Below, piece by piece: positions 9,380-64,000 of a DNA stretch of 64,000 nucleotides (positions are counted from its first letter, which is position 1; each line of letters starts with the position of its first letter). The stretch covers positions 5,874 to 69,873 of IMG/VR virus record IMGVR_UViG_3300021399_000007. One strand, written 5' to 3'. Under the pieces are notes generated by a model that did not search any database, was not told the DNA's origin, and saw nothing but the letters and a program-made list of their open reading frames with translations. A program made the position numbers and the translations under genes. This DNA is from a virus.

Positions 9380-10256
9380 AAATACACAAGTTTGGGGATT
9401 TGAACATGCAATACGAGGTATGAGAAATCCTAAAAATAGTTGGGATAAAAGCGATAGTTATTTTAATATTACAGATGATTATGATGAAGGGATTCTTGAT
9501 GTAGCTGACGCCTGGGTTTATCAAAATTATCCTGAGTTGAATGGGCATGAAGATACTAAAGAATTTTTTGATTTAGAAGATAAATGTTGTAATTGGTTAC
9601 TTACAGAAGGAATTTTAAAAGAATCCAAAAATTATCAGTATAGGGATAATGCTTTTATCGGACCTAATGATATGAAACTTGCCCAAACATTGATTAAGGC
9701 CGGTCCAGAACATCGTAAATTTTTACGACAAATTTTTGTATCAGTTGATATTACAGCTCCACTTTATTGGTGGAAATAGATGGATACTTATAAAATTGGA
9801 ACCATCGCTAATAGTACATCAACAATGCATAAATTAACTAGTAAACCTATTACTATTGATTGTTTTGAAACAGATGATATGAATCCTGATTTAATATATT
9901 ATAGTATTCCAGAATATGCAGGTGGACCAGCAAAAAATGATATTGGAATGTTATCTGATTTTATGATTGAACAGCTTGAATTTCTTCGTCAAAAATATAT
10001 TGAAACAAAAAATAAAGGATACTGGAAAGAACTCGTGCGGTGGTTGCCTGAAAGCTGGTTACAAACTAGAACTTGGACCGCAAATTATGAAGTCCTTCAT
10101 ACTATTGCTCATCAACGTAAAAATCATAAGTTAAATGAATGGAGCGGGCAAGATGATCCATCTAAAAATAATTTTATTAAATGGATGCATGAATTACCTT
10201 ATGCTCAATATTTAATTTTTGATGATGAAAATATTCCTTTTCAAATTGAAAAATAA
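9369..10256 (+). CDS. hypothetical protein; track ORFs 9369..9779 and 9780..10256 fused through a single in-frame TAG; weak ThyX-like segment
   Basis: Both ORFs share one frame, separated only by TAG at 9777-9779. APLYWWK(TAG)MDTYK resembles the ThyX APIFVARQWFRHR region, but the RHR motif is absent. Confidence 0.4.
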
Positions 10257-15915: not shown

Positions 15916-16104
15916 ATGGATGATAAAGTTTTTAGATATAGAAAAAATCATAAAAAATGTAAATATTGTAAATATTATCATGTTGACGGAGCAATACAAT
16001 TAGGTATAGTTTATGACCATTGTAAAGCCAAAGATACTATTATTTATAATATAGACATCCCACGATGGTTTTGTTCATGTTATGAGGTTAAAAATGAATT
16101 TTAA
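15916..16104 (+). CDS. small Cys-rich protein
   Basis: CKYCKYYH...HCKAK...CSC pattern. Confidence 0.3.
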   Translation: MDDKVFRYRKNHKKCKYCKYYHVDGAIQLGIVYDHCKAKDTIIYNIDIPRWFCSCYEVKNEF

Positions 16105-17191
16105 GTATAATAAAGATACACTTAAAGAAAATCTAACAATAGAAGAAGTATTTGATCTTGTAAGTGAATTGGGCGGTGAACCTATAATGGGAAATGGATT
16201 ATTTACCGCCCGCACAATTTGTCATGGTGGTGATAGTCATAAATTATATTACTATGAAAATACTCGATTATTTCATTGTTATACAGGATGCGGCGATGCT
16301 TCATTTGATATATATGATTTGGTATTAAGAGTTAATAAGGCTGCTGGTATTCAAAATTTTTCTTTACCTCGTGCTATTGCATTTGTAGCTCGATACTTTG
16401 GATATACAGCAGAAACATTCAATTTTGAAGATAACCAAGAAGCAAATGAAGATTGGCAAATTATTAATAACTTTAAAAGAAATAAGGAAAAAAATCAACC
16501 GCAAATTGTAGAATTAAAAACTTATAATAATAAAGTGTTAAGATATTTACCTCATCCGCATATTATTCCTTGGGAGCAAGAAAACATAACATTTGATATT
16601 ATGGAGTCAAGAGGAATCTGTTATGACCCTATTAATGAAGGAATTGTTATTCCTCATTATGATATAGATGGAAATCTTGTTGGTATTAGAGAGAGAACGC
16701 TTATAAAAGAAAATGAGGTATATGGTAAATATCGCCCTGCATATTTAAAGGGGAAGCTTTATAATCATCCTCTTGGATTTAATTTATATAATTTAAATAA
16801 TAGCAAAAAAGCAATTTCTACATTTCAAAAAGCTATTGTATTTGAAGGAGAAAAAAGTTGTCTTAAATATGCTTCATATTTTGGACAAGAGTCAGATATA
16901 AGCGTTGCTTGTTGTGGCAGCAATTTAATTAATTATCAAGTCAAACTGCTTTTATCTCTTGGAGTAAAAGAAATTATTATTGCACTTGATAAACAGTTTC
17001 AAAAAATTGGTGATAATGAATGGCAGAAATGGGTTATTAAATTAAAAACTTTATATAATAAGTATGGTAATTATGTAAATATTAGTTACATGTTTGATAA
17101 AGATAATTTACTTGGATATAAAGATTCACCAATAGATTGTGGGAAGGATACATTTTTACAATTATTTAAAAAAAGGGTTACAATAGAATGA
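16082..17191 (+). CDS. DNA primase (DnaG-like, CHC2 zinc finger + TOPRIM)
   Basis: CHGGDSHKLYYYENTRLFHCYTGCG zinc-binding motif, and TOPRIM-like EGEKS...D.D segments. Confidence 0.6.
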   Translation: MRLKMNFKYNKDTLKENLTIEEVFDLVSELGGEPIMGNGLFTARTICHGGDSHKLYYYENTRLFHCYTGCGDASFDIYDLVLRVNKAAGIQNFSLPRAIAFVARYFGYTAETFNFEDNQEANEDWQIINNFKRNKEKNQPQIVELKTYNNKVLRYLPHPHIIPWEQENITFDIMESRGICYDPINEGIVIPHYDIDGNLVGIRERTLIKENEVYGKYRPAYLKGKLYNHPLGFNLYNLNNSKKAISTFQKAIVFEGEKSCLKYASYFGQESDISVACCGSNLINYQVKLLLSLGVKEIIIALDKQFQKIGDNEWQKWVIKLKTLYNKYGNYVNISYMFDKDNLLGYKDSPIDCGKDTFLQLFKKRVTIE

Positions 17192-52744: not shown

Positions 52745-53590
52745 GAGGGGAAGTCATTTCCTCGATTTAGAGAGGGAATCGCTTTTTCGATTCAAAAATA
52801 CTTTTGGAGAGAGAAATGTGGAGCCCAAACCCTTTTATTAAATTCAAAAAATTTTTTTCACAAAATATACCCCCCGTAATACTGACTACCTTGACTAGAT
52901 TTCGTGAGGCCTGAATGAGATAGGGCGGAAATAGGTCCCTACAAAAATATTCACAGCCTTGATTAAAACAAACAATTAAATAAAAATAATTACAAAGATG
53001 ATGAAATAAAAATAAAAAAGTTTCATCATCTTTTTGTTTGAAAGAAAAATAAAACACAATAGTTATTATTTTAATAAACGTGCTGCTGGGCGGCAAACGC
53101 TCGTTTGTCGCCGAGGTTCTTCATGGAGTAGGGTTGCAGGTTTTATTCGACCAATTCTGAGAAATCGGCAAAGTTGGTCATTTCCTAGAATTAGGTAAAT
53201 TTACCTAAAAGTGAAAAATTGGTAAAGTTCTTGTTAAAAAATTAACGAAGTTAGAGGCCAGCGACTCTTGTTAGTCGCAATGAACTTTGACCAATTTTTA
53301 TTTTTTGGCTTTAATAAAATGAGTTTACTAATTGGCAAAGGAACAGGATCAGATAGTAAACAGACTGTACTAATTAAACAATGTAACGAATACTTCAATA
53401 CACTAAAGTGTTAGAGAACTAAAGCAACAGCAGACGAAAGACACACAAAGCGACTAAGTAACAACTGTTTACTATATTAATAAGAACTAATGTAGAAAGA
53501 TTGTTAAAAAATTAACGAAGTAATGATACTTACAGACTTAAAAACACTAAAAAAGTAAATTCATTTTACAATATATTTTTTTCAAAAAAG
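52745..53590. repeat. ~850 bp non-coding region with iteron-like direct/inverted repeats and strong hairpins (candidate origin of replication or regulatory hub)
   Basis: Repeats AAATCGGCAAAGTTGGTCA / AAAATTGGTAAAGTTCTTGTT / inverted AACTTTGACCAATTTT at 53155-53300. Hairpin GGCGGCAAACGCTCGTTTGTCGCC at ~53087. Two TTGTTAAAAAATTAACGAAG boxes at 53230 and 53505. Confidence 0.45.
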
Positions 53591-53989: not shown

Positions 53990-54430
53990 ATGACAAGAAC
54001 AATCTTCTTCGACATGGACGGAACAATCGCAGACCTTTACAAAGTAGACGGATGGCTGACCGACCTTATCAACAAAGATGTAAGACCTTACAGAGAAGCA
54101 AAAGTAATGCACAACATGCAAGTACTTGCAAGACTTCTTAACAGACTTCAGAAGAAAGGAAACAAAGTAGCAATCATTAGTTGGTTGGCAAAAAACAGCA
54201 CAGAAGAATATGACACAAGAGTAGCGCAGACTAAAAGAGAGTGGTTGAAAAAACATCTCACAAGCGTTAACTTCGATGAAATCCACATTGTAAAATACGG
54301 AACAAGAAAAGAAACATTCATCCACACAGAAAACGACATTCTCTTTGACGATGAAGAACAAAACAGAAACAACTGGACGGGAAAAGCTTACAACGTGAAT
54401 AACATCATTGAAACACTGAAGAGCCTTTGA
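53990..54430 (+). CDS. HAD-superfamily phosphatase (5'(3')-deoxyribonucleotidase-like), paralogue 1
   Basis: FFDMDGTIAD motif I and DILFDDEE motif. Promoter TTGACAAATCCGGTTTAATAGATTATACTAT. Terminator AGAGCCTTTGAAAAGGCTCT. Confidence 0.6.
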   Translation: MTRTIFFDMDGTIADLYKVDGWLTDLINKDVRPYREAKVMHNMQVLARLLNRLQKKGNKVAIISWLAKNSTEEYDTRVAQTKREWLKKHLTSVNFDEIHIVKYGTRKETFIHTENDILFDDEEQNRNNWTGKAYNVNNIIETLKSL

Positions 54431-54703
54431 AAAGGCTCTTTTTTAATGCGGAATGTTAGTTATGACTAATTCTTGCGGCGAGCGAGATTGTTAAAAAATT
54501 AACAAACGTCTGCGGGCGCTGGGGGCCGAAAAATTTTATCACAGGTGGGTCGCAGTTGTCAAGACAGAAAAATGCACAAAATAGTTAATTATTAGGTTTC
54601 CCATTTTGTGCATTATTTTTTTCAAAATACGTTGACTTTTCCGGTCAAATAGCTTATAATTAAATCATCAAAGAGAGATACACAAAAGAAAGGAGAAAAC
54701 ATC

Positions 54704-55083: not shown

Positions 55084-55255
55084 GGCTCTACATGAGCCTC
55101 TTTTTTATGCGCGGGGCGTTGACATTTACATCAACGTATTCAAAAGTTAAAAGTTGGCGATTTTGATTGTTAAAAAAATAACTTTTAAAAAAGTGTTGAC
55201 AAAAGATCAGACATTTGCTATACTTAAATCATCAAAGGAAAGGAGATTAAAACAA

Positions 55256-55422
55256 TGACAAGAGAGGAAATGTTAACACTGGTAATCAAAAAGTTTGGTT
55301 TCGAGCATGAATATACAATCCAGTTCGCAGAAGCGATGGAATGGTTAGGAAGAAAAGAGCTTGAAGCTCTTATGAATGAAGTGTTAGCACTTCCACTTGA
55401 TATTGAAGATGAGGATGAATAA
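55256..55422 (+). CDS. small acidic protein (55 aa)
   Basis: Promoter TTGACAAAAGATCAGACATTTGCTATACT, RBS AAGGAG, terminator GATGAGGATGAATAATCCTCATC. Confidence 0.4.
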
Positions 55423-55585
55423 TCCTCATCTTTTTTTATGCGCGGCGCGCTGGTGGCCGCACCAGCGCGTTTTTCCATTATACCATACCCATCGGGTTTT
55501 GTCAATTGACATTTTGCACAAATTTTAATGCTAAAAATATCCTAAAATTCGTCATTCTTTCAAAAGTTAAAAATCGGTAGATTTC

Positions 55586-55690
55586 TTGTTAAAAATTTAA
55601 CAATCGACTAAAAGTGAAAAATCGGCAAAGTTCTTGTTAAACTTTTAACAATCTACCTACCACTCCTTGTTAAATTCTTAACAAGGGAAA
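55586..55690. promoter_or_regulatory. Array of three tandem palindromic operator-like sites (TTGTTAAA-N4-TTTAACAA) upstream of the 55745 promoter
   Basis: TTCTTGTTAAAAATTTAACAATCG, TTCTTGTTAAACTTTTAACAATCT and CCTTGTTAAATTCTTAACAAGGG, spaced about 45 and 33 bp apart. A perfect palindrome TGTCAATTGACA sits at ~55500. Confidence 0.5.
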
Positions 55691-55803
55691 AATTAAAAAT
55701 CAGCGGTTTTGACTTTGTTAAAAAAATAACTTTTAAAAAGGGGTTGACAACCGGAGTAATAAGGCTTATAATAAGGGTACAAACAAGGAAGGGGGACAAC
55801 CTA

Positions 55804-56265
55804 ATGACTACCAACACCGCACTCCACATCAATCTGATTGACCGCTACAACGCAGTTGCTTATACCCATGAGTATGTATGGGGCTTCACCTACAAAAAAA
55901 ATGTCTATATGACAATCACCGACGCAACTGTGATGCCGTTCGTTACCTGCCTTGACAAGGCAAGCCGTGGTGCTGGATATGCACTTCGCTTCTGCCCCAA
56001 CACTCAGCAGAAAGTGGCCCTGCTTCCATATGCGACCCTCCTTTGCTCTGAAGCTTACTTCAATGAAGTAGTAGCCGACAGCAAGTACAATAAAGGCGAG
56101 ATTTTTGAAAAAATGGTCACCGAACATTTTGGACAGACCTGGGAAAAGGATAATGTTCCCTTTACTGAAGATGGTGATATCACAGTCGATGGTACTGCAT
56201 ATCAAATCAAGTTTCAGAAAGCCACCTTCTGTAACGAAAAGAGCATAGCCAACCTTGAAAAATAA
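55804..56265 (+). CDS. hypothetical accessory protein
   Basis: Promoter GTTGACAACCGGAGTAATAAGGCTTATAAT. RBS AAGGAAGGGGG. The track ORF starts earlier at 55744, inside the promoter. Confidence 0.5.
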   Translation: MTTNTALHINLIDRYNAVAYTHEYVWGFTYKKNVYMTITDATVMPFVTCLDKASRGAGYALRFCPNTQQKVALLPYATLLCSEAYFNEVVADSKYNKGEIFEKMVTEHFGQTWEKDNVPFTEDGDITVDGTAYQIKFQKATFCNEKSIANLEK

Positions 56266-59443: not shown

Positions 59444-59824
59444 ATGTATACTATGACAAAACTTACCTACGCTATGGCTATCGACTTCGCAACCGCAATC
59501 ATCACCAATGGAACTGCTGATTTCAACGGCTTCTCCGCTGATGAGTACCTTGAGAAGCTGGAGTCCCTCAAGGCTTCCCTTGCAAGACGCAACGGAAGTG
59601 AGAGAAAACCCACCAAGACCCAGCAGGCAAATGAGGGTCTGAAAGAAGATATGTGGGCTTACGTTTCTGAGAATGGTGCAAAGCGTGCCAATGAGGTCGC
59701 TGAACACTTCGCTATCAGCGGTCAGAAGGCTTCGGCTCTGCTGAACGCACTGGTCAAGGAAGGTCGCCTTGACAAGTTCACCGAGAAGCGTGTGACCTAC
59801 TTCAGGGTTGCTGAGGGGATGTAA
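59444..59824 (+). CDS. KPTKTQ-motif winged-helix-like small protein, paralogue A
   Basis: Shares the KPTKTQ..N(D/E)G(F/L)K motif and a C-terminal wHTH-like segment with 62777 and 63774. Promoter CTTGACAACTGAATAAGGAACTGATATAAT. Confidence 0.5.
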   Translation: MYTMTKLTYAMAIDFATAIITNGTADFNGFSADEYLEKLESLKASLARRNGSERKPTKTQQANEGLKEDMWAYVSENGAKRANEVAEHFAISGQKASALLNALVKEGRLDKFTEKRVTYFRVAEGM

Positions 59825-60553: not shown

Positions 60554-60874
60554 GGTCATCTGACCCACCCGGGCGCCCGTTAACAATTCTGTAACAAAAT
60601 TAATAAATTGTTAAATTGACAAAATAAAAAAGATTTATTATAATTGTTACAGAAAGAGAGGTAAAAAGCTATGAAGAACACTTGGAAAATGGAAACATCT
60701 AAGGATTTTACCGCATGGGATTTAAATTGCCGAAATGTAGTCCCCCACAAAAAGCATCACAATGAACTTGAAAAAAAATTAAAAAGAAAAAATCGTAGAA
60801 AAGTAAAAATGACGCTTGACATTCTTTTTAAGTGATGCTATAATACAATTACAAAAAGAAAGGGGAATAAAAAA

Positions 60875-61312
60875 ATGACGATTTGGTTTGACATGGATGG
60901 AACAATTGCTAATCTCTACGGAGTTCAAAACTGGCTTGACTATCTGATGGCAAGCGACCCCACCCCTTACGCAATCGCTAAACCGCTTCTGAGACTGAAC
61001 GCACTGGCAAGAGTTCTAAATAATCTTCAGCGCAAGGGTTACAAAGTCGGAGTCATCAGCTGGCTTGCTAAAAACAGCACCGCCGACTATGACGAAGCGG
61101 TCACCAAAGCAAAGATTGATTGGTTGACTAAACATCTTGCAAGCGTTACTTTCGATGAAATCAACATCGTAAGATACGGAACTCCAAAACATCTGTTCGC
61201 TACCTGCGAAGCCGACATTCTTTTCGATGATGAGGAAAAGAACCGCAACGAATGGACAGGAAAAGCGTTCGATGTGAATAACATTCTTGAAGTGCTGAAG
61301 GGACTGGATTAA
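60875..61312 (+). CDS. HAD-superfamily phosphatase, paralogue 2 (GC-richer codon usage than paralogue 1)
   Basis: WFDMDGTIAN and DILFDDEE motifs. Collinear with 53990..54430 at the protein level. Terminator GGACTGGATTAATCCAGTCC. Confidence 0.6.
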   Translation: MTIWFDMDGTIANLYGVQNWLDYLMASDPTPYAIAKPLLRLNALARVLNNLQRKGYKVGVISWLAKNSTADYDEAVTKAKIDWLTKHLASVTFDEINIVRYGTPKHLFATCEADILFDDEEKNRNEWTGKAFDVNNILEVLKGLD

Positions 61313-62188: not shown

Positions 62189-62490
62189 AAACAAGGCAGA
62201 GGATTTTTCCTCTGTCTTTTCCAGCGGGGCGCGAGCCTTCGGTTCGCGCCGAAATTTCCATTGTACCACACCCCGCACTTTTTGTCAAGCAAAATCTGCA
62301 AAAAAACTACACAAAATTATATCCCAAAATTAGTGCAACATTCCGATGTTGACTTTCTAAAAAACTTATATTATAATATGTTTACAAGGTAAGGGAAGGG
62401 CAACACAATCGAGTAGGATGGTCGGCAGAGCCTAGCGCCTTCTGATTATTTGAATAGACAGATAGCCACTTCAAAAAAAATAAAAAAACT

Positions 62491-62776: not shown

Positions 62777-63136
62777 ATGACGAAGAGAGAAATGTTCACC
62801 AAAATCCGCACTGCTGTTGCTAACGATGCTGAGATGGTCGCCTTCATTGACCACGAAATCGAGTTGCTGAACCGCAAGTCCGCAACCCCGAAGAAACCCA
62901 CCAAGACGCAGGTGGAAAACGATGGTTTCAAGGCTGAAATCCTTGAAACGTTGGCTCAGGTCGATGCGCCTGTGACCATCAAGGAACTGTGCGGTGCCTG
63001 TGAAGCTCTCGCAGGTCTTTCCAATCAGCGTGTGACTCACATGCTGACTGACCTCCGCAAGGATGGCAAGGTTGCTCGGTCCTATGTTAAGAAGGTTGCC
63101 TACTTCGCTCTTGGTTCTGAGGACGAGGTAGAGTAA
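62777..63136 (+). CDS. KPTKTQ-motif winged-helix-like small protein, paralogue B
   Basis: MTKREMFTKIRTAVANDAEMVAFIDHEIELL...KPTKTQVENDGFKAEI is near-identical in its N-terminal half to 63774. Confidence 0.5.
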   Translation: MTKREMFTKIRTAVANDAEMVAFIDHEIELLNRKSATPKKPTKTQVENDGFKAEILETLAQVDAPVTIKELCGACEALAGLSNQRVTHMLTDLRKDGKVARSYVKKVAYFALGSEDEVE

Positions 63137-63773
63137 GAAAAAGGGTTTGCGGTTATCCCTTAAAACCGCATTTTATGGGGGATTTATAGTGAAGCCTGAG
63201 GTGACAAGTAGTTGCGTAATAGCCCTTGTGTAATTCCTGGGAAGATGTGGTGCAAGTCCCATTCCCCCAACTCTACTGACAATATTCGTTCCTCCTTTCT
63301 TTGAAAAGACACCATCTTTTTAGATGGTGTCTTTTTCATTTGGCGCCACGCGACCGGTCGGCCGCGGGGCGAAACTTCCATTATATCATACTCTGGGCTT
63401 TTTGTCAAGTGAAAATCTGCACAAACATCTCGCCGCAAAATTCCCAAAATTAGTGCAATATTCCGACATTGACTTTTTCAAAAAAATTTATTATAATATA
63501 TTTACAAGGTAAGGGAAGTCAACCGCTAAAAAAACTTAAAAAGTTAAAAAAAGTTCTTGACAAAACAAAAGCCTTGTGCTATAATAATCTTGTTGGGTGG
63601 TAGAAGCAACATAAAATAAAAGATACCCGTGGAGTTGATGGTACGATAGTCTCCGAAAAAAAACCATCAAAAAATTAAAAAATCTATTGACAAATCAAAA
63701 ATCTTATGTTAAAATAAGTACATAAGATAAAACAAAAACAAATCAATCAATCAAAAGAAAGAGGTGTTTATTA

Positions 63774-64000
63774 TGACAAAGAAAGAAATGTTCTCCAAAA
63801 TCCGTACTGCTGTTGCTGATAACGCTGAAATGGTTGCTTTCATCGACCATGAGATTGAACTGCTGGAGAAGAAGTCCAGTTCCCCGAAAAAGCCGACCAA
63901 GACTCAGCTTGAGAATGACGGCTTCAAGGCGGAGATTGTCGCCTACCTCACGGATGCTGATGCTCCGAAGAACATCAAGGAACTTCAGGCCGAGGTCGCT
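63774..64000 (+). CDS. KPTKTQ-motif protein, paralogue C (3' end outside the window)
   Basis: MTKKEMFSKIRTAVADNAEMVAFIDHEIELLEKKSSSPKKPTKTQLENDGFKAEI. Promoter ATTGACAAATCAAAAATCTTATGTTAAAAT. Confidence 0.45.

Follow-up and report, generated by a model that had tools for sequence, protein, structure and literature searches.

The DNA analysed here, hereafter the window, is a stretch of 64,000 nucleotides of the IMG/VR record IMGVR_UViG_3300021399_000007 and is part of a large uncultured rumen phage. It codes for gyrase subunits, an NAD-dependent ligase, a DnaB-type helicase, a PolIII-alpha polymerase and an anaerobic ribonucleotide reductase. The polymerase shares 39-40% identity with SPbeta YorL and with Enterococcus phage polymerases, a 369-aa protein (16082-17191) shows ~40% identity to SPbeta YorJ, and a YonG_N protein is encoded on a contig of the same phage sequence; judged by these proteins, the phage is a distant relative of SPbeta. 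An ENA contig (the name of which points to a sheep-rumen sample) and two other samples carry the sequence, 100% identical over the overlap. Searches of cultured phages gave no match to the region studied here (megablast) or to the 153-aa protein encoded downstream of it (tblastn), so that there is no cultured model; a winged-helix protein of the phage gave one weak tblastn match, to an unannotated faecal phage record. Scans of the window with Rfam and for tRNAs were negative. From ~53 kb onward, the window becomes a run of small genes, each with its own terminator and consensus sigma-A-type promoter (16 perfect TTGACA-17-TATAAT promoters lie between 54 and 64 kb), and in this part the G+C content rises from ~30% to 37-42%.

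The region studied here separates a 55-aa gene from the 153-aa gene within this run. The features in this region, together with related sites elsewhere in the window, are as follows (centres of boxes are given relative to the predicted start of the rightward promoter, P55744).

53231-53248 and 53501-53518: one-mismatch box TTGTTAAAAAATTAACGA in two identical copies, both in an ORF-free stretch of ~850 bp
54488-54505: fourth perfect box, TTGTTAA-AAAA-TTAACAA, at the preceding cassette junction, ~+30 from a weaker leftward promoter (54562 to 54533)
55405-55433, plus strand: intrinsic terminator hairpin 1, with a 12-pair stem and then a T run, which ends the 55-aa gene (55255-55422)
55444-55471, plus strand: terminator hairpin 2, G+C-rich (CGCGCTGGTG/CACCAGCGCG), then TTTTT; conserved in the relative L002
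55477-55505, minus strand: perfect leftward sigma-A-type promoter (-35 at 55505-55500, TGn and -10 at 55482-55477, 12/12)
55500-55511: 12-bp palindrome TGTCAATTGACA, whose left half is the -35 of the leftward promoter
55562-55584, plus strand: 23-nt leader repeat (AAAAGTKAAAAATCGG...) before box 1, with copies at 55610-55632 and 55688-55710
55586-55603: box 1, TTGTTAA-AAAT-TTAACAA, perfect Rex-type box, centre ~-185
55634-55651: box 2, TTGTTAA-ACTT-TTAACAA, perfect Rex-type box, centre ~-137
55667-55684: box 3, TTGTTAA-ATTC-TTAACAA, perfect Rex-type box without the leader repeat, centre ~-104
55715-55732: degenerate box 4, TTGTTAA-AAAA-ATAACTT, with the core GTTAAAAAAATAAC at 55717-55730, centre ~-56.5, overlapping the UP-element position
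55744-55772, plus strand: P55744, perfect rightward TTGACA-17-TATAAT promoter, predicted start near 55779-55780
55804-56265, plus strand: downstream gene, 153 aa, of no known family, with relatives 74-89% identical
60580-60588 and 60606-60614: 9-nt inverted repeat TTAACAATT/AATTGTTAA, everted, nested in a 22-nt inverted repeat that brackets P60616

The two hairpins with their T runs confirm the two strong terminators that a preliminary description of this DNA had placed upstream of the array, and folded as a pair they reach z = -6.8. The leftward promoter is predicted to produce a structured RNA of ~120 nt in antisense orientation to the 55-aa gene at its 3' end; in the predicted fold, a hairpin and a U tract lie at 55371-55355. 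Three or four such leftward modules, homologous to one another, occur in the window: besides this one, those at 62288, at 63408 and, weaker, at 54562. Two divergent consensus promoters thus stand ~240 bp apart, with the boxes between them. A perfect palindrome with two divergent TTGACA hexamers had also been singled out in the preliminary description, and it is present at 55500-55511, but only the minus-strand TTGACA belongs to a promoter (that of the right half has no -10), and the palindrome is not significant alone, as at least one match with at most one mismatch was found in 25 of 100 shuffles. Because the homologous copies of the leftward promoter lack it, the palindrome is probably fortuitous, and a role as operator was ruled out on this ground. 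A Spo0A box was also considered and rejected, the palindrome having two mismatches to what we take to be the sequence of that box.

Boxes 1 to 3 (55586-55684) are indeed three dyads in tandem upstream of P55744, as first described, but their motif is 7-N4-7 and not 8-N4-8. They start 48 and 33 bp apart, which leaves gaps of 30 and 15 bp. Boxes 1 and 2 lie within a 48-bp tandem unit that includes the 23-nt leader and whose copies are 75% identical, and leader-like sequences also precede the sites at 53231 and 55167. Here and in relatives, the half-sites are kept and the 4-nt spacers are variable. The pattern TTGTTAANNNNTTAACAA has four perfect matches in the window against 0.00 expected (100 shuffles), and the remaining ~60 kb of the window hold no further sequence resembling the boxes: the dyad cluster is highly non-random, far beyond chance. 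The repeat at 60580-60625, which had been listed as another dyad, does exist (9 nt) but is everted and so is not a box.

Rex is a dimeric winged-helix repressor of Gram-positive bacteria that senses the NADH/NAD+ ratio, binding DNA when the ratio is low and being released by NADH. The dyads TTGTTAA-N4-TTAACAA match the Rex box letter for letter, and the form TTGT[T/G]AA-N4-TT[A/C]ACAA is found at 55586, 55634, 55667 and 54488; the consensus used, TTGTTAANNNNTTAACAA, is the one quoted for the Clostridiaceae (Ravcheev et al. 2012, as cited in PMC5367854 and PMC9600882). Since the motif is the published clostridial Rex box, an identity that the preliminary description had missed, a host regulator is the leading candidate for the binder. 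With constant half-sites, variable spacers and recurrence in dozens of related contigs, the dyads match what is expected of sites bound by a dimeric winged-helix regulator. To this extent the operator sites proposed in the preliminary description hold up, whereas the dedicated phage repressor switch proposed with them is unsupported.

IMG/VR was scanned for contigs with two perfect copies of a pattern 10-40 nt apart, using the two forms of the box and four composition-matched control dyads. The T-type box (TTGTTAA-N4-TTAACAA) was found in 47 contigs and the canonical Rex box (TTGTGAA-N4-TTCACAA) in 19; the controls were found in 0 (TTGTAAA-N4-TTTACAA), 0 (TTGATAA-N4-TTATCAA), 2 (TTGTTCA-N4-TGAACAA) and 0 (TTCTTAA-N4-TTAAGAA). 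Hybrid boxes, with one T half and one G half, occur 29 times. Most matches fall in one supergroup of 49 loci linked by shared proteins, the window among them, and the motif is also found in several loci sharing no protein with this group (among them two contigs of 200-290 kb and one with 65% G+C), their unrelatedness being judged on short loci. A metagenome scan added at least 120 contigs with tandem perfect boxes, of which 89 have consensus promoters of the window type; by a crude peptide-motif test, none of these metagenome tandem boxes lies beside Rex, Ldh or Fe-ADH genes. In metagenomes, tandem perfect boxes are almost confined to this phage type and are a signature of the phage lineage, which a phage-encoded binder would explain too. 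With more than 160 contigs found, the motif offers a simple way to recognise a large group of uncultured phages from sequence.

The 153-aa gene is kept at 74-89% identity in four IMG/VR or MAG loci, and the dyad array in the spacer differs in each: the orthologous spacers of L002 and L003 hold CTAAC/GTTAG-type dyads (with arrays of at least 16 at a 20-bp period elsewhere in L003), that of L004 holds TGCATAAAAATT repeats, and that of L005 holds CTTTAACGCGTTAAAG and GTTAGT-N4-ACTAAC. One relative has a downstream protein 89% identical to that of the window, yet a quite different array. As the arrays vary independently of the flanking genes, neither neighbour would encode the binder, and both the 153-aa and the 55-aa proteins were rejected in this role, the arrays differing where the proteins stay similar. 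Neither protein gave any Pfam match, nor a PHROG match to DNA-binding domains, and PDB was uninformative. One close relative lies in a MAG labelled Erysipelotrichaceae, a point against the Rex reading in so far as such a host may lack a Rex of this specificity. Among the larger arrays, L011 has ten boxes spaced at a 24-bp period, L007 and L008 have 12-13, and L015 has 24 spread over 12 kb. The boxes are scattered over many spacers (as in L015) and the motif differs at orthologous positions; on these grounds, iterons of a replication origin, a pac/terminase site and a partition centromere were all rejected.

Other operators are found in these arrays. Perfect CIRCE elements (TTAGCACTC-N9-GAGTGCTAA, which we take to be the operator of HrcA) occur in L060 (two copies), L015 and L290. 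Perfect Gram-positive LexA SOS boxes (CGAAC-N4-GTTCG) number 32 in 8 loci, against 0 for two control patterns; both the SOS-box consensus and in vitro binding of LexA to SPbeta DNA have been reported (PMC8270828). By their sequence, the CIRCE and LexA components are unmistakable host repressor operators, and nothing else speaks as strongly for a host protein as the binder of the Rex-type boxes.

Between the outermost perfect boxes and the nearest -35 there are 59 bp on the P55744 side and 80 bp on the side of the leftward promoter. Across 125 box-promoter pairs, box positions range from -65 to -250 relative to the predicted start, with almost none from -50 to +10, and the LexA boxes show the same promoter-avoiding placement. 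The spacings between boxes (24, 28, 33, 35 and 48 bp) share no common helical phase. Classical Rex operators overlap the core promoter; here, no perfect box lies over or next to one, and the sole proximal site is the degenerate copy at -56.5. Given these positions and spacings, steric repression of the OR/OL kind or of the classical Rex/LexA kind is not a fit. That the perfect boxes are clear of core promoters, here and in relatives, also counts against a Rex reading as such.

The degenerate copy, for its part, is tied to promoters. Its 14-mer core, GTTAAAAAAATAAC, retains the inner GTTA-N6-TAAC of the box and is identical at 5 of the ~25 plus-strand promoters (55196, 55744, 57340, 57944 and 59939), always exactly 27 nt upstream of the -35; the earlier statement that related half-sites recur upstream of most cassette promoters was therefore too broad. 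GTTA-N6-TAAC itself peaks exactly 27 nt upstream of the -35, at 12 promoters in 8 phages and with varying spacers (this offset is seen in the window, L005, L006, L009, L031, L040 and L047). Seven of the 12 are promoters of related contigs, with different and partly non-A-tract spacers, and one is a perfect full box. The proximal copy is an A/T-rich tract at ~-40 to -60 and at a fixed distance from the -35, as an UP element would be; the three perfect distal boxes do not answer to this description. The fallback reading given in the preliminary description, a common UP element, is thus largely right for the GTTAAAAAAATAAC copies but falls short in relatives, where the GTTA...TAAC core is kept although the A-tract is interrupted, which argues that the core is more than an A-tract. 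The five proximal 14-mers may also owe their identity to common descent, from a single promoter module that was copied, and a perfect consensus promoter may respond little to a protein at -56.5; both points weigh against a Rex reading.

We tentatively favour, with somewhat less than even confidence, the reading that the dyads are high-affinity sites for host Rex, which would couple the early cassettes to the NADH/NAD+ state of the host and possibly titrate Rex. In the mechanism that we propose, Rex dimers would fill the three perfect distal boxes and also, directly or through a raised local concentration, the weak proximal site (~-56.5). This site overlaps the UP-element position of P55744 and has the same counterpart at four other early promoters, so that Rex bound there would damp very strong promoters in a metabolically idle host. 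A build-up of NADH in an actively fermenting cell would then free Rex and permit full early expression, and replicating phage DNA, with its multiple perfect sites, would draw Rex off the host operators. We infer Rex as the binder, the direction of its effect and the occlusion of the UP element. This distal-plus-proximal model is preferred for the window because the proximal site is found at P55744 and at the four other promoters. The positions are compatible both with distal sites that feed a weak proximal site, which the -27 peak favours, and with sequestration, which the perfection, copy number, mixing and swapping of operators favour.

Sequestration could also be the whole function: the boxes would be Rex decoys, whose replicating copies sequester Rex and derepress the host Rex regulon, with any effect on neighbouring promoters incidental. 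The sites are perfect, multiple and avoid core promoters, their spacing follows no consistent helical phase, arrays grow to 10-13 copies or to 9-11 boxes in ~2 kb, and a single spacer can combine several operator types, while orthologous spacers can differ in the types they carry, all as expected of decoys. Yet the window holds only four perfect and two near-perfect sites, a clear promoter-linked class stands at -27 from the -35, and the pairs of sites at a regular ~33 bp just upstream of promoters in L015 and L290 look regulatory. Our literature search gave no precedent, nor do we know of one for Rex decoy arrays, and we regard a pure decoy function as unlikely. A dimeric regulator encoded by the phage, which would bind the boxes and time the early cassettes or turn them off, in the manner of SPbeta MrpR on SPBRE sites or of the mycobacteriophage stoperators, deserves more weight, although we still judge it to be on the improbable side; in that case, the match to the Rex box would be a coincidence or deliberate mimicry. 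The candidates are winged-helix paralogues encoded at 59444-59824, at 62777-63136 and from 63773 onwards, and that these phages encode several such paralogues is in itself an observation against a Rex reading. The family is found in at least 12 related loci, in 2-3 copies each and with several recognition-helix subtypes, and its profile matches MarR/ArsR-type winged helices (Pfam FaeA/FeoC-like), not Rex. Its 'QKASAL' subtype occurs in box-rich loci (the window, L006, L015, L021, L034 and L052), L003 and L004 combine other helix subtypes with other arrays, other phages fill the proximal slot with TAGACGA-N3-TCGTCTA or CAGAATATTCTG, and the near-restriction of tandem perfect boxes to this phage lineage would also be accounted for. 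However, the association of subtype and motif is biased, the loci having been chosen for their boxes, and the G-type phage L058 has a recognition helix nearly that of the T-type phages. Moreover, the promoters of the paralogues themselves have no box, and the motif is also present in loci that lack the family, including the 65% G+C contig. A phage binder would further require a coincidence of ~1 in 1000 with the Rex consensus, and again for the G form and the hybrids, when control dyads are essentially absent and the arrays demonstrably include host operators (LexA, CIRCE).

Host Rex thus remains our preferred binder, and two further explanations carry little probability. Another host factor could use the boxes as upstream activator or modulator, the obvious candidate being a member of the Crp/Fnr family. 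Proteins of this family recognise a TGTGA-N6-TCACA core, which the G-type box contains; the core GT[TG]A-N6-T[AC]AC is common to Crp/Fnr-type sites, and the centres of the sites (-56.5, -65.5 and further upstream) are reminiscent of where class I activators bind. This is very unlikely in our view, as it is the Rex box that is matched over all 18 bp, the outer TT/AA included, an activator is unneeded at consensus promoters, and we know of no T-type Crp/Fnr motif. Slightly less credible still is that no specific protein is involved and that the dyads are by-products of the tandem duplication of an A/T-rich, UP-element-like or curved module upstream of the promoter. The region is A/T-rich, boxes 1 and 2 share their 48-bp unit at 75% identity, and the proximal copy matches much of the UP-element consensus; but the leader is missing at box 3, half-sites are perfect though spacers differ, the same 14 specified bases occur with other flanks in more than 160 contigs, and equally A/T-rich control dyads are absent.

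What the locus suggests is a phage that reads or soaks up a host metabolic regulator, and not one with a lambda-style repressor switch of its own. NADH/NAD+ is a direct readout of fermentative activity, and such a link would be relevant in the rumen and gut, where fermentation products and methane are under the control of redox balance. The co-occurrence of Rex, LexA and CIRCE sites, their avoidance of core promoters and their swapping between orthologous spacers point to a possible titration of host regulons. A bolder generalisation, which we consider doubtful, is that intergenic arrays of perfect host-repressor operators (Rex here; Rex together with LexA and CIRCE/HrcA in relatives) act as DNA decoys, a previously undescribed phage strategy. 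If so, multiplying phage genomes would strip repressors from the host chromosome without any phage protein, switching on fermentation and NAD+ regeneration, the SOS response and chaperones, and the unexplained dyads of relatives (GTTAGT-N4-ACTAAC, CTTTAACGCGTTAAAG and TGCATAAAAATTCA) would be operators of further host regulators.

Compared with known systems, the boxes are closest in sequence to the Rex operators of Gram-positive bacteria, with which they share an identical 18-bp inverted repeat, an A/T-rich spacer and clustered copies; the cyd promoter of B. subtilis, for instance, has tandem Rex sites. They differ in that all phage copies are perfect consensus, lie 104-185 bp upstream of the start and not over the promoter, and can number 10 or more in relatives. 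Multiple regulator sites upstream of very strong early promoters or in spacers are also found in phi29, whose switch region holds p4 sites and Spo0A boxes and whose early promoters are silenced by host Spo0A, and in the stoperators of mycobacteriophages, which are asymmetric and oriented and act on elongating polymerase. The proteins and motifs of these systems are different, and to our knowledge neither uses Rex. Phage lambda likewise has three similar dyads in a row between divergent promoters, and a likeness to its tripartite OR/OL had been proposed in the preliminary description. This likeness finds no support: lambda operators overlap PR/PRM, are 3-7 bp apart and are flanked by the repressor genes, whereas the boxes here overlap neither divergent promoter, stand 59-80 bp from the -35 hexamers with gaps of 15-30 bp (30 and 15 bp between boxes 1 to 3), have no recognisable regulator gene or other DNA-binding neighbour at their flanks, and differ as arrays in relatives.

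A short element that recurs in many early promoter regions is also known from SPbeta, a large phage of the same type, where the master repressor MrpR (YopR), a recombinase-fold protein, binds the 15-bp motif SPBRE (PMC10516654). That motif differs from the 18-bp Rex-type dyad seen here, and no homologue of MrpR, YonR, AimR, YopO, YopS or YonN was found in the window and the 9 kb beyond it, out of a genome of more than 100 kb; in this same part, the best tblastn match of MrpR was no better than E = 2.8. Operators of host regulators are carried by several phages, as LexA SOS boxes in SPbeta and GIL01 and as CtrA boxes in phages of Alphaproteobacteria (PMC8270828, PMC4551915, PMC9437464). As in these phages, the operators here are those of a candidate host global regulator, through which phage genes would respond to host physiology. 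The signal is DNA damage or the cell cycle there and would be redox here, and the sites in the window do not lie over promoters; SPbeta, in addition, lacks any Rex box at up to one mismatch, which counts against the Rex reading, and any CIRCE at up to three, over its whole genome, and our literature search found nothing relevant on Rex sites or decoy arrays in phages. To LexA, Spo0A and CtrA, the host signals that phages already read, a Rex link would add the NADH/NAD+ balance. Altogether, the use of host-regulator operators by phages is already known, and the feature described here is best classed with it and not with switches of the lambda type.

From 56 kb on, most cassette junctions carry the palindrome GCCCGGGC, frequently in the form CGCCCGGGCG, in the gap that separates the terminator from the promoter; the cassettes are the small early genes that each have their own terminator and promoter. 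Five copies were counted in the window, nine in L072 (a 20-kb comparison locus that overlaps the window and extends 9 kb beyond its end) and 41 across 12 related loci. A 22-nt inverted repeat, TTCTGTAACAA...TTGTTACAGAA, is a candidate for a separate operator pair: it flanks the -35 of P60616, a predicted sigma-A-type promoter, on both sides and takes in its -10.

Window 56279, 57300, 57900, 58885, 61332 and onward: palindrome GCCCGGGC
L072 3503-13598: palindrome GCCCGGGC
Window 60587-60608 and 60633-60654: the two arms of the 22-nt inverted repeat, 86% complementary

Leftward consensus promoters form a homologous family, placed just 3' of rightward terminators and directed back into the preceding gene. 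From the promoter at 55505, the predicted transcript is ~120 nt long with four hairpins, is antisense to a 55-aa gene and terminates at 55371-55355, at a hairpin with a U tract. The family may produce cis-antisense RNAs, or else act through transcriptional interference.

54533-54562, minus strand: leftward consensus promoter
55477-55505, minus strand: leftward consensus promoter
62260-62288, minus strand: leftward consensus promoter
63380-63408, minus strand: leftward consensus promoter

About 850 bp of the window (52745-53590) are free of ORFs and carry two identical one-mismatch Rex-type boxes together with copies of the AAAAGTGAAAAATYGG leader, a 23-nt repeat; an Rfam search of this stretch gave no match. 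A comparable long non-coding stretch, also with box arrays, lies at 2270-2900 of the comparison locus L002.

Two gene families recur within the early array. One encodes a two-part protein, with a helical N-terminal part bearing a PTKTQ motif and a C-terminal winged helix; in relatives, the N-terminal and C-terminal types occur in shuffled combinations, and in the window the promoters of genes 59444 and 62777 are near-identical modules. The other, 5'-3' deoxyribonucleotidase-like (NT5C), is the most frequent marker of the phage group among metagenome matches.

59444-59824, 62777-63136 and 63773-64000+: two-part early protein, three paralogues
53990-54430 and 60875-61312: NT5C, two paralogues

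Upstream of early promoters in the comparison loci, a different dyad, GTTAGT-N4-ACTAAC, forms tandem arrays with a 20-bp period, the largest with at least 16 copies; 69 perfect copies were found across 16 loci. A one-mismatch relic at window 54459-54474 adjoins the Rex-type box at 54488.

L003 820-1180 and 2600-3030; L002 5650-5860; L007; L060: GTTAGT-N4-ACTAAC dyad

Rex-type boxes also occur in other phages. In one sub-group of relatives, whose contigs measure ~93-119 kb (L053, L054, L058, L059, L066, L067, L069 and L070), a terminator is followed by two to three canonical Rex boxes. In 18 of 28 cases, this sub-group also has a distinct dyad, TAGACGA-N3-TCGTCTA, immediately 5' of the -35, with its centre at about -41 to -60 relative to the predicted start of transcription. 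A separate phage group with a G+C content of 0.42-0.46 (L018, L019, L020, L024, L027, L032, L037 and L046) is without consensus promoter arrays; a large non-coding region in these phages contains exactly two perfect T-type boxes (TTGTTAA-N4-TTAACAA) at a spacing of 35 bp (for example, L018 10762-10814). On the L068 contig, whose G+C content is 65%, a divergent intergenic region contains a pair of perfect TTGTGAA-N4-TTCACAA boxes at a spacing of 48 bp (10032-10097) and adjoins a putative helix-turn-helix gene, judged by eye; this pair could represent control linked to Rex in a phage whose host has a high G+C content.

CIRCE, the HrcA operator, appears widespread in phage DNA. Perfect copies were found in at least 120 viral contigs (IMG/VR loci L077-L194), with three copies at a 49-bp period in L132 and two in tandem in L154; among the matches listed, only 22 CIRCE-bearing contigs had a GroEL-like gene within the fetched locus. 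Finally, at L004 5730-5910, TGCATAAAAATT(CA) repeats precede the counterpart of the window's 153-aa gene (55804-56265), and these appear to resemble ARG boxes, the ArgR/AhrC operator.
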